NCBI RefSeq assembly: GCF_003790525.1
Contig: NZ_CP033635.1
DNA: 64,000 bases
From: Escherichia coli
GTDB taxonomy: Bacteria > Pseudomonadota > Gammaproteobacteria > Enterobacterales > Enterobacteriaceae
Direction: 5' to 3' (one strand)
Shown here: positions 55,303 to 59,814 of the stretch, in pieces
Layout: each line of letters opens with the position of its first letter
Numbering within the stretch: the first letter of the stretch is position 1
The notes under the pieces: generated by a model
Seen by the model: only the letters and a program-made list of their open reading frames with translations
Told to the model about the DNA's origin: nothing
Database searches by the model: none
Position numbers and translations under genes: made by a program

Positions 55303-56019
55303 ATGAAAAAGGCTAAAATACTTTCTGGCGTATTATTACTGTGCTTTTCGTCACCATTAATTTCTCAGGCTGCGACACTGGACGTACGTGGTGGATATCG
55401 TAGCGGAAGCCATGCCTATGAGACTCGACTCAAAGTCAGTGAGGGATGGCAAAATGGATGGTGGGCAAGCATGGAAAGTAATACCTGGAATACCATTCAT
55501 GATAATAAAAAGGAAAATGCCGCACTCAATGATGTTCAGGTTGAAGTTAATTACGCGATTAAACTTGATGATCAATGGACGGTGCGCCCGGGAATGTTAA
55601 CGCATTTTAGCAGCAACGGCACACGCTACGGACCCTACGTAAAACTGTCCTGGGACGCGACAAAAGATCTTAATTTTGGCATTCGCTATCGTTACGACTG
55701 GAAAGCTTACCGACAACAAGACTTATCCGGTGATATGTCTCGTGATAACGTTCATCGTTGGGATGGATATGTCACTTACCATATTAATAGTGATTTCACC
55801 TTCGCATGGCAAACGACGCTATACAGCAAACAGAACGATTATCGCTATGCAAACCACAAGAAATGGGCGACGGAAAATGCATTTGTTCTACAATACCATA
55901 TGACGCCCGATATTACGCCATACATAGAATATGACTACCTTGACCGCCAGGGTGTTTACAACGGCAGAGATAATTTATCGGAAAACAGTTATCGCATTGG
56001 TGTGTCATTTAAACTGTAG
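55303..56019 (+). CDS. nanC: N-acetylneuraminic acid outer membrane channel NanC
   Basis: 238 aa from ATG 55303; signal peptide and KdgM-family beta-barrel. Confidence 0.9.
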   Translation: MKKAKILSGVLLLCFSSPLISQAATLDVRGGYRSGSHAYETRLKVSEGWQNGWWASMESNTWNTIHDNKKENAALNDVQVEVNYAIKLDDQWTVRPGMLTHFSSNGTRYGPYVKLSWDATKDLNFGIRYRYDWKAYRQQDLSGDMSRDNVHRWDGYVTYHINSDFTFAWQTTLYSKQNDYRYANHKKWATENAFVLQYHMTPDITPYIEYDYLDRQGVYNGRDNLSENSYRIGVSFKL

Positions 56020-56038
56020 TAGACAGGAGACAGTCACA

Positions 56039-57145
56039 ATGAATAAAACAATAATGGCGCTTGCTATCATGATGGCTTCATTTGCCGCAAACGCGTCTGT
56101 ATTACCGGAAACTCCTGTGCCATTTAAAAGTGGTACCGGAGCAATTGATAACGACACTGTCTACATTGGTTTAGGTAGCGCAGGTACAGCATGGTACAAG
56201 CTGGATACACAGGCCAAAGATAAAAAATGGACAGCGTTAGCTGCATTCCCTGGTGGACCGAGAGATCAAGCAACCTCTGCATTTATTGATGGCAATCTGT
56301 ATGTGTTTGGCGGCATTGGCAAAAACAGCGAGGGCTTGACTCAGGTATTTAATGACGTACACAAATACAACCCCAAAACTAATAGCTGGGTTAAATTGAT
56401 GTCGCACGCGCCGATGGGCATGGCGGGCCATGTGACTTTTGTACACAACGGCAAGGCTTATGTTACTGGCGGTGTTAACCAGAATATCTTCAATGGCTAT
56501 TTTGAAGATCTCAACGAGGCTGGAAAAGATTCAACCGCTATAGATAAAATCAACGCCCACTATTTTGACAAAAAAGCAGAAGATTATTTCTTCAATAAGT
56601 TTCTGTTGTCTTTTGATCCCTCAACACAGCAATGGAGTTACGCTGGCGAATCTCCCTGGTACGGAACGGCTGGTGCGGCGGTTGTGAATAAAGGTGATAA
56701 AACCTGGCTTATTAATGGCGAAGCCAAACCAGGATTGCGAACGGATGCCGTATTTGAACTTGATTTCACCGGTAATAATTTAAAATGGAATAAGCTTGAT
56801 CCCGTCTCATCACCAGATGGCGTCGCTGGCGGTTTTGCGGGGATAAGCAATGATTCTCTTATATTTGCCGGAGGGGCCGGATTCAAAGGTTCACGAGAAA
56901 ATTACCAGAACGGTAAGAACTATGCGCATGAAGGCCTGAAAAAATCATATAGCACTGATATTCATCTTTGGCATAACGGGAAATGGGATAAATCGGGTGA
57001 ATTATCGCAAGGTCGGGCCTACGGAGTATCATTGCCCTGGAATAATAGTTTATTAATTATTGGCGGTGCAACTGCAGGCGGCAAAGCGGTGACGGATTCA
57101 GTTTTAATTTCTGTGAAGGATAATAAAGTCACAGTACAAAACTAA
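56039..57145 (+). CDS. nanM: N-acetylneuraminate mutarotase NanM (Kelch repeats)
   Basis: 368 aa from ATG 56039; signal peptide MNKTIMALAIMMASFAANA. Confidence 0.9.
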   Translation: MNKTIMALAIMMASFAANASVLPETPVPFKSGTGAIDNDTVYIGLGSAGTAWYKLDTQAKDKKWTALAAFPGGPRDQATSAFIDGNLYVFGGIGKNSEGLTQVFNDVHKYNPKTNSWVKLMSHAPMGMAGHVTFVHNGKAYVTGGVNQNIFNGYFEDLNEAGKDSTAIDKINAHYFDKKAEDYFFNKFLLSFDPSTQQWSYAGESPWYGTAGAAVVNKGDKTWLINGEAKPGLRTDAVFELDFTGNNLKWNKLDPVSSPDGVAGGFAGISNDSLIFAGGAGFKGSRENYQNGKNYAHEGLKKSYSTDIHLWHNGKWDKSGELSQGRAYGVSLPWNNSLLIIGGATAGGKAVTDSVLISVKDNKVTVQN

Positions 57146-57209: not shown

Positions 57210-58190
57210 ATGAACGCAATAATATCGCCCGATTATTACTATGTTCTTACCGTTGCTGGTCAGTCTAATGCCATGGCGTATGGCGAAGGACTGCCATTAC
57301 CGGACAGGGAAGATGCGCCTCATTCCAGAATTAAACAATTAGCGAGATTTGCGCATACGCATCCCGGAGGCCCGTCATGTCACTTTAACGACATTATTCC
57401 TCTGACTCACTGCCCACACGATGTTCAGGATATGCAGGGTTATCACCATCCTCTGGCAACGAATCATCAAACACAGTACGGCACCGTTGGCCAGGCACTG
57501 CATATTGCACGAAAATTACTGCCCTTTATTCCTGATAACGCAGGGGTTCTCATCGTTCCGTGTTGCCGTGGCGGATCGGCTTTTACCGCGGGCAGCGAAG
57601 GGACATATTCAGAACGGCACGGAGCCAGCCATGATGCTTGTCGTTGGGGATCGGATACTCCGCTATACCGGGATTTAGTCAGCAGAACGCGAGCCGCACT
57701 GGCAAAAAATCCGCAGAACAAATTCCTCGGCGTATGCTGGATGCAAGGCGAATTTGACTTAACGACCAGTGACTACGCGTCACACCCTCAACACTTTAAT
57801 CATATGGTTGAAGCCTTTCGTAGGGATCTAAAACAATACCATTCTCAGCTTAATAATATTACTGACGCGCCGTGGTTTTGCGGCGATACCACCTGGTACT
57901 GGAAAGAAAAATTCCCTCATGCGTATGAAGCTATTTATGGCAATTATCAAAATAATGTTTTAGCCAATATTATTTTCGTCGACTTCCAGCAACAAGGTGA
58001 AAGAGGACTGACGAACGCGCCTGTTGAAGACCCGGACGATTTAAGCACGGGATATTACGGTTCAGCGTACCGGTCACCGGAGAGCTGGACGACGGCACTG
58101 CGAAGCAGTCATTTCAGCGCGGCAGCCCGTCGGGGGATTATTTCTGACAAGTTTGTAGAAGCAATTTTGCAGTTTTGGCGCGAAAGGTGA
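57210..58190 (+). CDS. nanS: 9-O-acetyl-N-acetylneuraminate esterase NanS
   Basis: 326 aa from ATG 57210; third gene of nanCMS. Confidence 0.85.
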   Translation: MNAIISPDYYYVLTVAGQSNAMAYGEGLPLPDREDAPHSRIKQLARFAHTHPGGPSCHFNDIIPLTHCPHDVQDMQGYHHPLATNHQTQYGTVGQALHIARKLLPFIPDNAGVLIVPCCRGGSAFTAGSEGTYSERHGASHDACRWGSDTPLYRDLVSRTRAALAKNPQNKFLGVCWMQGEFDLTTSDYASHPQHFNHMVEAFRRDLKQYHSQLNNITDAPWFCGDTTWYWKEKFPHAYEAIYGNYQNNVLANIIFVDFQQQGERGLTNAPVEDPDDLSTGYYGSAYRSPESWTTALRSSHFSAAARRGIISDKFVEAILQFWRER

Positions 58191-58243
58191 GCGTTCATTA
58201 ATTTGATTTATTTGCATCCATCAACGCTTTTAACTGCTCCGGC

Positions 58244-58990
58244 GTGCGGCACTATAATGGTTTTCACAACAAGGAGCCATTTTCTTATACCACTTTCAGA
58301 GACCATCCGCTTATGCCACCGCCCTCTACGCAACTGTTTGCAGAGCACCTTCCCACCGAGTGGATACAGCACCTCCTGACGCTTTCTGCTCATGCGACCA
58401 TTTGTCGTCTTAACCTGAGCGCGGATGGCGAAGCGGGGATTAGCCTGCTGGCCCGCAGCGCTGTCACCCAGGAGCGCCAGCGCGTGGGGGCCCCCTGGTG
58501 GAATGGCTCTTCCGCCAGACCGCACAGACATGGGGCGCGGAACGTTACCTGAAGGATGACTGGCACGGCCTGCAACTTTTTGCCATTGATGGCGCACAGT
58601 TCAGGACACCTATGAACCTGAGTTGCGCGAATATTATGGCTCTGCCAACACATCCACTGAGCGGCAGAGCGCCTACCCGGTCATGCGTCTGGTGGCGTTA
58701 ATGAATCTGGGAATCACATTCTGCTGAATGCCATGACCTCGGCCTACCGGCGGAGCGATACAGCGTGAGGCAACTAAAGCGGCGTCAGAAATCAGCTTTA
58801 AGTTCGCATTCCAGTTTATCGTGACAGAAATGATAGTGCAGGGAAATACGGCGTCACCAGGAACCATCCCGAAACGGCTGGAGCATCTGCGGGGTGCTCT
58901 GGAAGCGGTGTTCCCACGACTATCAAGGCCGAGGGCTGTTAAGGTATCAAAAACCCGTTATCCGGTGAAACACAGTGCCGCCCCGCTTAA
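58244..58990 (+). pseudogene. IS4-family transposase remnant (frameshifted, internally deleted)
   Basis: Translations in two frames align to IS4 transposase segments as I recall them (e.g. QTAQTW ... LFAIDGAQFRTP and the C-terminal KTRYPVKHSAAP); no intact ORF; no terminal inverted repeats identified. Confidence 0.5.
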
Positions 58991-59163
58991 GTGACGGCAT
59001 TGTGTTTCTGACTGGCCTTAACTTTCCCTGAATCTCTGACGATCCTCACCATTGATATTTTCTTCATTCCTCACCAGAGAAATAAAAAATCACTATACTC
59101 ATCAAAATATGAGATTACATTTATTCAGGCGATCACCTTACTATTTTATACGGAAAATAAATC

Positions 59164-59814
59164 ATGAATATCCGTCAATCATTACATGACCGAATCTATG
59201 CAGAATACCCTCAACAGGCTAAAGATATATTACTGTATTTCCCCACTTATGAAATTATGCCATCGACCATAAAAATGGTTATGATTAATGAGGTGGTAGC
59301 TATAACACCGCAAGAAGATTTTTATACACCAGAGTCTGGTTATTTTACGACTGTCGCCCGACAGTTAGCGCTGGCTGGATTATCGGCAAGTAGTGGCGAA
59401 GTCTTACTCAACCATGGTATCTACCTGACCTCCGCACTGAAACTACCTAAAACACAGATCACAGCCACACCCGCGGAGATCATTCTCTGGTCACCTATTG
59501 TAGAATGGGAGCTCGAACTCTTTGCCAATATAAAAGTTATTTTCGTTGGCGGCGATATCGCGCGAAAATGCCTTAACATCATCGCGAAAAAGCAAACACG
59601 TAAACATGCCATCCCTTCAACTCCGACGTACAAACTGATGAATAGCGAATTAGTCTGGAAAGGAATAAGCATACTTCCTGGATATATTCTTACCGGAAAA
59701 AACCTGCTCATTGAAAAGTCAAAAATCGAAATGAATGTCGAACAATTAAGAAAAGGAATTGCGATTTATCGCAATAGTAACAGTAACCATACGAATAATT
59801 CAGTTCATGAATAA
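59164..59814 (+). CDS. Hypothetical protein (216 aa), AT-rich; possibly uracil-DNA-glycosylase-superfamily-like
   Basis: ATG 59164; no close family recognised; weak resemblance to UDG-fold motifs (IFVGGDIARK ... KHAIPSTP); convergent with the helicase gene. Confidence 0.45.
   Translation: MNIRQSLHDRIYAEYPQQAKDILLYFPTYEIMPSTIKMVMINEVVAITPQEDFYTPESGYFTTVARQLALAGLSASSGEVLLNHGIYLTSALKLPKTQITATPAEIILWSPIVEWELELFANIKVIFVGGDIARKCLNIIAKKQTRKHAIPSTPTYKLMNSELVWKGISILPGYILTGKNLLIEKSKIEMNVEQLRKGIAIYRNSNSNHTNNSVHE

Follow-up and report, generated by a model that had tools for sequence, protein, structure and literature searches.

What separates the nan genes from the accessory DNA behind them in this chromosome, and how did the boundary between the two arise? 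The window that we analysed is a 64,000-nucleotide stretch of Escherichia coli DNA (contig NZ_CP033635.1 of assembly GCF_003790525.1), taken as a whole. Its genes run in the order fimE, fimB, nanC, nanM, nanS, an insertion sequence (IS) remnant, a 216-aa open reading frame (ORF), a gene for a UvrD-family helicase and a gene for a 2113-aa helicase that continues off the window end. The fragment region is 100% identical to the chromosome of E. coli SMS-3-5 (NC_010498.1). RefSeq/PGAP annotates 58313-58994 as a frameshifted pseudogene ('transposase' / 'hypothetical protein'). A sequence-only reading had placed a decayed IS4-like transposase remnant at 58244-58990 and had taken it as the mark of an old recombination or insertion point at the edge of a variable hotspot. 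Overall, our analysis indicates that 58245-59002 is very probably an immobile, non-coding fossil of a 1430-bp IS4-family IS, from the same element family as insZ, at a joint made by deletion or recombination.

An IS4-family remnant lies between nanS and the helicase genes

We found intact copies of the element by a protein search of plasmids with a conceptually repaired version of the copy that lies beside silE. The intact element used for comparison is 1430 bp long (L010:1418-2847; plasmid pCPWW7-IncF, NZ_CP075717.1, 44413-45842) and encodes the 445-aa transposase WP_029488891.1. Its 18-bp inverted repeats, CAATGCCGATCAGTTAAG and CTTAAGTGAACGGCATTG, are complementary at 16/18 positions, and its target duplication is 11 bp long (TTCAGTTCGGG).

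A tblastn search of the whole window with this intact 445-aa relative gave five high-scoring segment pairs, all at the remnant only. They lie at 58295-58492, 58486-58611, 58614-58712, 58709-58762 and 58758-58991, in frames 2, 1, 3, 2 and 3 respectively, and span aa 10-195 and 357-445 of the protein (E 4e-64 and 2e-34). Pieces of the transposase can be recognised in the three forward frames of 58191-59163, and a long ORF is absent there. The earlier reading had described fragments in two frames; the transposase fragments were found, but tblastn puts the number of frames at three. It had also stated that no intact ORF is left, and the longest in-frame piece is indeed only 102 aa. This 102-aa ORF (58244-58549) gave a marginal match to Pfam Nterm_IS4 (E 1.5e-5; 25.6 bits against a cutoff of 25). 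At the DNA level, homology to four independent copies of the element covers 58245-59002 (blastn and alignment). A failure to align to any IS transposase had been named as the outcome that would speak against the reading; the remnant aligns to IS4-family transposases. The signal at 58244-58990 is confirmed, far beyond chance, as a genuine IS4-family transposase remnant by tblastn, by the Nterm_IS4 match and by DNA homology to other copies. The limits differ from those first given by 1 bp on the left and by 12 bp on the right, and the 12 bp missing on the right are the end of the right inverted repeat.

The assignment to the IS4 family also stands. Membership follows from transposase homology, on the side of the remnant through tblastn and Nterm_IS4, and on the side of the intact relative through the NCBIfam IS4 equivalog NF033592 (263 bits, cutoff 115) and both Pfam domains, Nterm_IS4 (1.7e-29) and DDE_Tnp_1 (1.3e-18). 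PGAP and cluster names give the element as 'IS4 family transposase' and nothing finer. In the literature, we found no name other than ISZ'/insZ, which is used for a K-12 fragment.

The element has decayed by deletion

Aligned to the intact copy, the remnant (58245..59002, plus strand) corresponds to IS positions 42-1430 of the 1430-bp element. It keeps 758 bp, is 92.9% identical over all of these retained bases, shares its right inverted repeat and its gene order with the intact copy, and is short of 672 of the 1430 bp. Unlike the intact plasmid element, it is frameshifted, has neither a left inverted repeat nor a start codon, and is missing both the second Asp and the Glu of the YREK motif. 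These losses and ten mapped deletions bear out the description of the element as decayed. All lesions of the remnant are deletions, which is the usual bias in bacterial pseudogenes.

The deletions are spread over the whole element. At the left end, 41 bp (IS 1-41) are gone, and with them the whole left inverted repeat. The start of the transposase gene (58283..58293, plus strand) is destroyed: ATG has become ATA (~58287-58289), and a 19-bp deletion just past the start codon (IS 91-109) falls after 58293, where the intact copy reads TATGCCACTTCTCAATG… and the window reads TATACCAC|TTTCAG. An 87-bp, in-frame deletion (IS 216-302), whose joint lies at 58399..58400 (plus strand) in the alignment to the intact IS, removes 29 codons of the Nterm_IS4 domain (…RRRRLPGDMVIWMVVAM…). 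Deletions of 1 bp each at IS 396, 516 and 619 are frameshifts. A deletion of 488 bp (IS 663-1150; joint at 58756..58757, plus strand) leaves aa 196-356 unmatched in the window and takes both the second Asp (LFDK, D214) and the Y-x2-R-x3-E-x6-K motif (YHSRWEIEVGFRNLK). Further to the right, 21 bp (IS 1169-1189), 12 bp (IS 1328-1339) and 1 bp within the right inverted repeat (IS 1421) are missing. There are about 4-5 single-base losses, four of them in the coding region. Not every gap has to be decay at this site. The 21-bp gap is also found in the copy on a ColV plasmid and may be a family variant rather than decay. The 1-bp deletion at IS 396 is common to the remnant and the silE copy; the inserted copy could already have been defective, or the C-run could be a mutational hotspot.

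What remains is a dead derivative rather than a functional element. Of the full DDE triad with Y-x2-R-x3-E-x6-K, the first Asp is the sole residue that survives (codon at 58588..58590, plus strand; FAIDG, D137 of the intact protein); FAIDG and the other motifs would correspond to the DDE/YREK signature that is typical of the IS4 family. The terminal inverted repeats, which the sequence-only reading had proposed to look for, are present on the right and absent on the left. The right one lies at 58986..59002 (plus strand; CTTAAGTG-ACGGCATTG, one base deleted) and is overlapped by the transposase stop codon (TGA, 58992-58994), and for copies at four different loci the homology ends precisely at …GGCATTG, the last base of this repeat. 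The left one, CAATGCCGATCAGTTAAG, does not occur anywhere in the window with up to 3 mismatches. The target-site duplication that was to be looked for together with them could not be recovered around the remnant. No direct duplication of ~10-13 bp was seen, the 13-mer past the right inverted repeat has a single occurrence in the window, and as flanking direct repeats the repeat finder gave chance-level short repeats only. Since the left end is deleted, this absence is expected. With the left inverted repeat, the start codon and two catalytic residues lost and the coding pieces in three frames, the remnant makes no transposase and cannot be mobilised in trans.

Beside these features, a 14-nt inverted repeat at 58967-59008 (GAAACACAGTGCCG / CGGCATTGTGTTTC, 93% complementary, 14-nt loop) extends across the right inverted repeat and 6 bp of flank, and O157 has identical sequence at both arms. 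It could have arisen by chance as a hairpin, or it could be what is left of the original target.

Other copies of the element

Further copies annotated 'IS4 family transposase' lie between adhE and tdk (in K-12 and many strains), beside silE and on a ColV plasmid. The silE, adhE-tdk (insZ) and ColV plasmid copies have target duplications of 10-11 bp. The copies at L003:2193-3621, L004:2210-3198, L006:2192-3597 and L010:1418-2847 sit inside GC-rich hairpins with a T-run, which resemble the intrinsic terminators of silE, adhE and a TolC-family gene. This suggests that the element family prefers terminator-like targets.

The fragment between adhE and tdk in K-12 has been named ISZ'/insZ (PMC3032704). 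It belongs to the same element family as the remnant (92% over 356 bp) and, like it, is a frameshifted, internally deleted fossil that is fixed in many genomes. On the other hand, insZ lies at another locus, keeps both inverted repeats and has a ~10-bp target duplication in the adhE terminator hairpin, and its deletions (17, 1 and 423 bp) differ from those of the remnant. There is also a likeness to IS4, the type element of the family, and its transposase InsG, a two-domain protein (Nterm_IS4 plus DDE_Tnp_1) in an element of ~1.43 kb. IS4 ends in 18-bp imperfect inverted repeats starting (C/T)AATGCCGATCAGTTAAGG and makes target duplications of ~11 bp. However, WP_029488891.1 and InsG share 37.5% aa identity over 95% of the length; at this level the two are distinct elements, and the remnant is not an IS4 copy.

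The left boundary is a joint within an HNH endonuclease gene

On its left the remnant meets a conserved flank of 54 bp after the nanS stop codon (58191..58244, minus strand). The minus strand of 58198-58244 carries the last 14-15 codons and the stop codon of an HNH endonuclease gene (…PEQLKALMDANKSN*), and the flank is conserved because this gene end lies there. In strains without the IS the flank is 97-100% identical, and their homology to the window ends at 58244/58245. In one of them, strain A25, the HNH reading frame runs on upstream (…CPNCHAMLHRRKPPFS). The 40-aa HNH fragment of A25 is too short and gave no HNH match in Pfam; Pfam HNH does recognise a full-length 213-aa HNH copy, located elsewhere in SMS-3-5, whose C-terminus is the same.

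We refer to the joint at 58244|58245 as J1. It joins codon -15 of the HNH gene to IS position 42. Because both partners are truncated, J1 points to deletion or illegitimate recombination and not to transposition. To its right, the IS is followed by DNA with no similarity to that past the breakpoint in strains of the HNH class or the K-12 class. When we considered an att-type origin for the boundary, a comparison by eye with the 3' end of leuX gave no convincing match. As a boundary marker the remnant holds up well, the cut IS end coinciding with the point at which other strains diverge. As for the old recombination or insertion point that it was said to mark, J1 is a deletion or recombination scar, and insertion by IS transposition is not the source of the joint.

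The conserved sialic-acid gene nanS to the left (57210-58190) is an intact 326-aa ORF that aligns to K-12 NanS without gaps at 96% identity. RefSeq, in this genome as in many others, calls it 'sialate O-acetylesterase, incomplete, missing C-terminus' (57210-57776) and places a separate 29-aa hypothetical protein (YthB-like) on the opposite strand at 58109-58198. The incomplete nanS call appears to be an artefact of annotation.

To the right of the remnant, an AT-rich flank (59003..59163) is present in E. coli only together with the IS remnant. It was found in 449 genomes, at one place in each, and every match starts inside the IS part of the query; a right flank free of the IS, that is, an empty site, occurs in none of 5426 genomes. 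The 216-aa ORF behind this flank (59164..59814, plus strand) is called 'uracil-DNA glycosylase family protein' by PGAP. Its match to Pfam UDG is a weak, superfamily-level one (E 0.003, under the cutoff), and PADLOC and NCBIfam gave no hits. The ORF is present in 92 genomes like SMS-3-5 and deleted in ~357 like O157. In O157, the region upstream of the ORF and its ATG are kept, and the sequence then jumps to 59818, a ~650-bp deletion with ATGAAT microhomology.

The junction after nanS varies among strains

A comparison of the junction across strains had been proposed, and we carried it out with a 400-bp probe centred on J1 against 5426 complete E. coli genomes. The probe matched 5226 of them, and the joint was spanned in 444 (8% of the 5426). 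Carriers of the IS junction include O157:H7, O55:H7, O145:H28 and SMS-3-5. The junction classes were counted in an evenly spaced sample of 60 records. The IS junction was present in five. In 31, homology was lost at 58244/58245 and an 'HNH endonuclease' fragment followed; in 19 (K-12, REL606 and others) it was lost at 58193, and in two at 58175, within the nanS 3' end. The last three matched only through an insZ-like copy elsewhere.

The neighbouring genes vary too. Next to nanS, A25 has a phosphorothioate-dependent restriction endonuclease, McrBC and a type I R-M system; K-12 has yjhR, topAI-yjhQ and the rest of KpLE2; AR Bank #0349 has an AAA ATPase with an N6-methylase; and O103:H2 has a CbtA/YeeU island. 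Thus at least three gene sets other than the IS remnant and its defence module adjoin nanS in other strains. We also considered whether K-12 yjhR is a remnant of the UvrD-like gene, which was ruled out by the lack of DNA similarity.

With at least four junction classes and gene contents after nanS, the view of this flank as a variable hotspot is upheld. Its support comes from the strain comparison and not, as had been suggested, from the IS itself. The nanS edge is a variable hotspot that has already been published: the supplement of Hochhauser et al. (2023; PMC10121019) lists hotspot #37 as nanS-yjgB, tRNA-Leu-CAA, and counts it as occupied in 462 of the 475 genomes in which it was located. 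The remnant sits at the nanS edge of this hotspot. Here the variable sequence starts 3-54 bp past the nanS stop codon, and four classes of gene content share the same flank. The four are the IS remnant with its defence module, the HNH fragment followed by the phosphorothioate-dependent endonuclease and McrBC, the K-12 yjhR/KpLE2 arrangement, and the AAA ATPase with its N6-methylase. At the other bound, tRNA-Leu(CAA)/yjgB (ahr), we relied on O157:H7, whose version of the island likewise begins with the IS remnant and in which the integrase, tRNA-Leu and ahr are 45 kb from nanS; the SMS-3-5 island was read over ~71-73 kb, short of leuX. The supplementary account of hotspot #37 gives occupancy, and in it neither the IS fragment nor the nan duplication presented below is described.

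The element died before the O157:H7 and SMS-3-5 lineages split

The copies of O157:H7 and SMS-3-5 have the 41-, 19-, 87-, 488- and 21-bp deletions and the 1-bp deletion at IS 619 in common. The O157:H7 copy has small indels of its own and lacks the SMS-3-5-specific ones. The two strains diverge by ~5-7% in the remnant and by ~3% in nanS. The shared large lesions indicate that the element was already dead in the ancestor of these alleles, before the two lineages split, and that it has drifted neutrally since. The frameshifts, both shared and private, speak against purifying selection on its reading frames.

A second nan copy brackets a 32-kb defence module

The 'helicase/nuclease pair' of the sequence-only reading does exist as genes, but these are part of a larger, 32-kb multi-system defence module. 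The UvrD-family helicase (60328..62442, minus strand; 704 aa, GajB-like) is encoded by the last gene of a helicase/methylase operon and matches Pfam UvrD-helicase and UvrD_C as well as PADLOC GajB (2.6e-36). Next to it is the 3' part of the DruE-like helicase gene (62439..64000, minus strand; 2113 aa), which runs off the window; the protein matches PADLOC DruE3 (4e-104) and has a ZorE-like HNH match at its C-terminus (5.8e-9). Read from nanS, the module consists of the IS remnant, the UDG-like ORF, the helicase/methylase operon, Druantia type III and Zorya type II. In Druantia type III, DruE3 was matched end to end, along with the STY4851/ECs_5259 protein.

The operon itself (60328-64000 plus L012:7867-24102) was not assigned by PADLOC to a single system. 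Its four genes encode a DrmD-like SNF2 helicase (952 aa), a type-IIG-like/DrmMI-like methyltransferase (1640 aa), the DruE-like protein (2113 aa) and the UvrD/GajB-like protein (704 aa). It resembles DISARM class 1, with the DruE-like protein replacing DrmA/DrmB, and its neighbours are a complete Druantia III and a Zorya II.

The block from the IS remnant to zorE measures 32,090 bp. Directly past zorE, 32 kb beyond the right end of the window, lies a decayed second nan copy (SMS-3-5 4908421-4909095; L015:38421-39095). One part of it matches window 56019-56535 at 95% identity and comprises the first ~500 bp of nanM plus the 19-bp nanC-nanM spacer; another part matches window 58061-58244 at 77% identity and comprises the nanS 3' end plus its flank. 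A full HNH gene comes next, and then a gene for a phosphorothioate-dependent endonuclease. The second copy of O157:H7 (L016:32478-32760) has the same start point and different internal deletions. A direct duplication of nanM-nanS-HNH thus brackets the 32,090-bp block, and the novel joints of the block are J1 and J2, the latter between the DNA downstream of zorE and the nanC stop codon (zorE|nanM'). Neither the missing 41 bp of the IS nor a second IS copy was found in the 73 kb of island read. A trace of the sequence upstream of nanC beside the second copy (72-74% over 74-76 bp) was too weak to count (E 5e-6 against the 12-kb A25 locus and 0.007 against the window).

Elsewhere in the same island, L015:1-12000 (SMS-3-5 4870000-4882000) carries a Kiwa system in which an intact ISVsa5 (IS4 family, IS10-like) interrupts kwaB. 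Many further IS fragments (IS3, IS66 and IS256) are also present.

Origin of the arrangement

The history that we favour would begin with a complete IS copy in the leuX-linked island, close to the end that faces nanS. IS position 42 would then have been fused, by deletion or illegitimate recombination, to codon -15 of the HNH gene, which converges on nanS, and J1 would have been created in this way. The remnant now caps the 32.1-kb defence module, whose far end, J2, abuts the decayed nanM-nanS-HNH copy. The duplicated nan copy at J2 argues that the module was installed by recombination; ~2.2 kb of nan sequence would have been duplicated in the process, and IS transposition would not have been responsible. 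The installation may have been a homology-facilitated illegitimate recombination with a donor that already carried J1, or it may have been a duplication-insertion event. The two nanM copies differ by 5%, which is compatible with a diverged donor and equally with neutral decay over a long time. From then on, the remnant would have been inherited passively as neutral DNA. The genome collection contained none of the intermediate states (a complete IS at the site, an empty site or the module without the IS). A more specific proposal is that J1 and J2 are the two scars of a single homology-facilitated illegitimate recombination or duplication-insertion that installed the 32-kb block. We put this forward tentatively, as a possibility with a real but minor chance of being correct.

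Alternatively, a complete IS may have been inserted in situ in the HNH gene and may have lost nothing but its left end there, with the defence module already in place or acquired later and independently. In IS-free strains the HNH frame reads through the breakpoint, and this arrangement is hence the ancestral one, and IS4-family elements do insert with 10-11-bp duplications. Nevertheless, the sequence right of the IS is unlike the post-breakpoint sequence of other strains, so that an insertion followed by a 41-bp loss is not enough to explain the locus. In addition, what is left of the HNH gene lies, together with the restriction enzyme gene, at a distance of 32 kb and beyond the second nanM-nanS copy, and the right flank has no empty site. 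We therefore regard an insertion in place as improbable.

Function and mobility of the remnant

Could the remnant have acquired a function in its present place? We saw no evidence of one. A sigma-70-like site at 58230-58258 (TTAACT-17-TATAAT, 10 of 12) lies across J1, and the remnant may therefore be transcribed. It is a hybrid, with the -35 in the nanS/HNH flank and the -10 in the IS, and the -10 reads TATAAC in O157 and in the intact IS. The remnant might have been co-opted either through this promoter-like site, facing the UDG-like ORF, or through the truncated Nterm_IS4 peptide acting as a regulator. The hybrid site and the 102-aa ORF with its marginal domain match are what speaks for it. 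However, the -10 is not conserved in O157, where the ORF is broken differently (+2 bp after IS 353 and private indels) and the UDG-like ORF is absent. The 102-aa ORF lacks the 29 domain codons and the native start. The promoter scan gave 3 sites against 1.3 expected from shuffles, which is weak, and between the site and the UDG-like ORF there are ~900 bp that contain no open frame. No Rfam family was matched in 57800-59400 with E up to 1, and no terminator-like site was seen in 58100-59300. Co-option is possible but unlikely, and we would give it very little credence.

That the remnant is a non-autonomous, MITE-like derivative, mobilisable in trans by a full-length copy, might be supposed from its large internal deletions, its nearly intact right inverted repeat and the full-length relatives on E. 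coli plasmids, but this reading is refuted and has practically no chance of being right, as neither the copy nor any other part of the window has a left inverted repeat, the copy is not flanked by a target duplication, and in all 444-449 genomes the remnant occupies one and the same locus, at one place per genome.

Discussion

Taken by itself the remnant is ordinary: a long-dead piece of a known kind of IS, which RefSeq had already annotated and which lies at a hotspot described before. Our analysis adds a decay map at base-pair resolution, a left boundary that is a recombination scar in an HNH gene and the duplicated nan flank of a 32-kb block. The fossil has modest value as a marker, since its shared truncation and large deletions tag one ancestral arrangement of the nanS edge, found in ~8% of the complete E. 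coli genomes. From its sequence, one joint of the Zorya II / Druantia III / helicase-methylase block can be placed with base-pair precision. Considered along with the second nanM-nanS-HNH copy, it indicates that the block was placed by recombination and not by transposition.

If J1 and J2 are indeed the two scars of one event, the direct repeats that now bracket the block (~500 bp at 95% identity in SMS-3-5) would allow its loss or transfer by plain homologous recombination. In that case, defence islands at hotspot #37 would be able to turn over without a transposase or an integrase.
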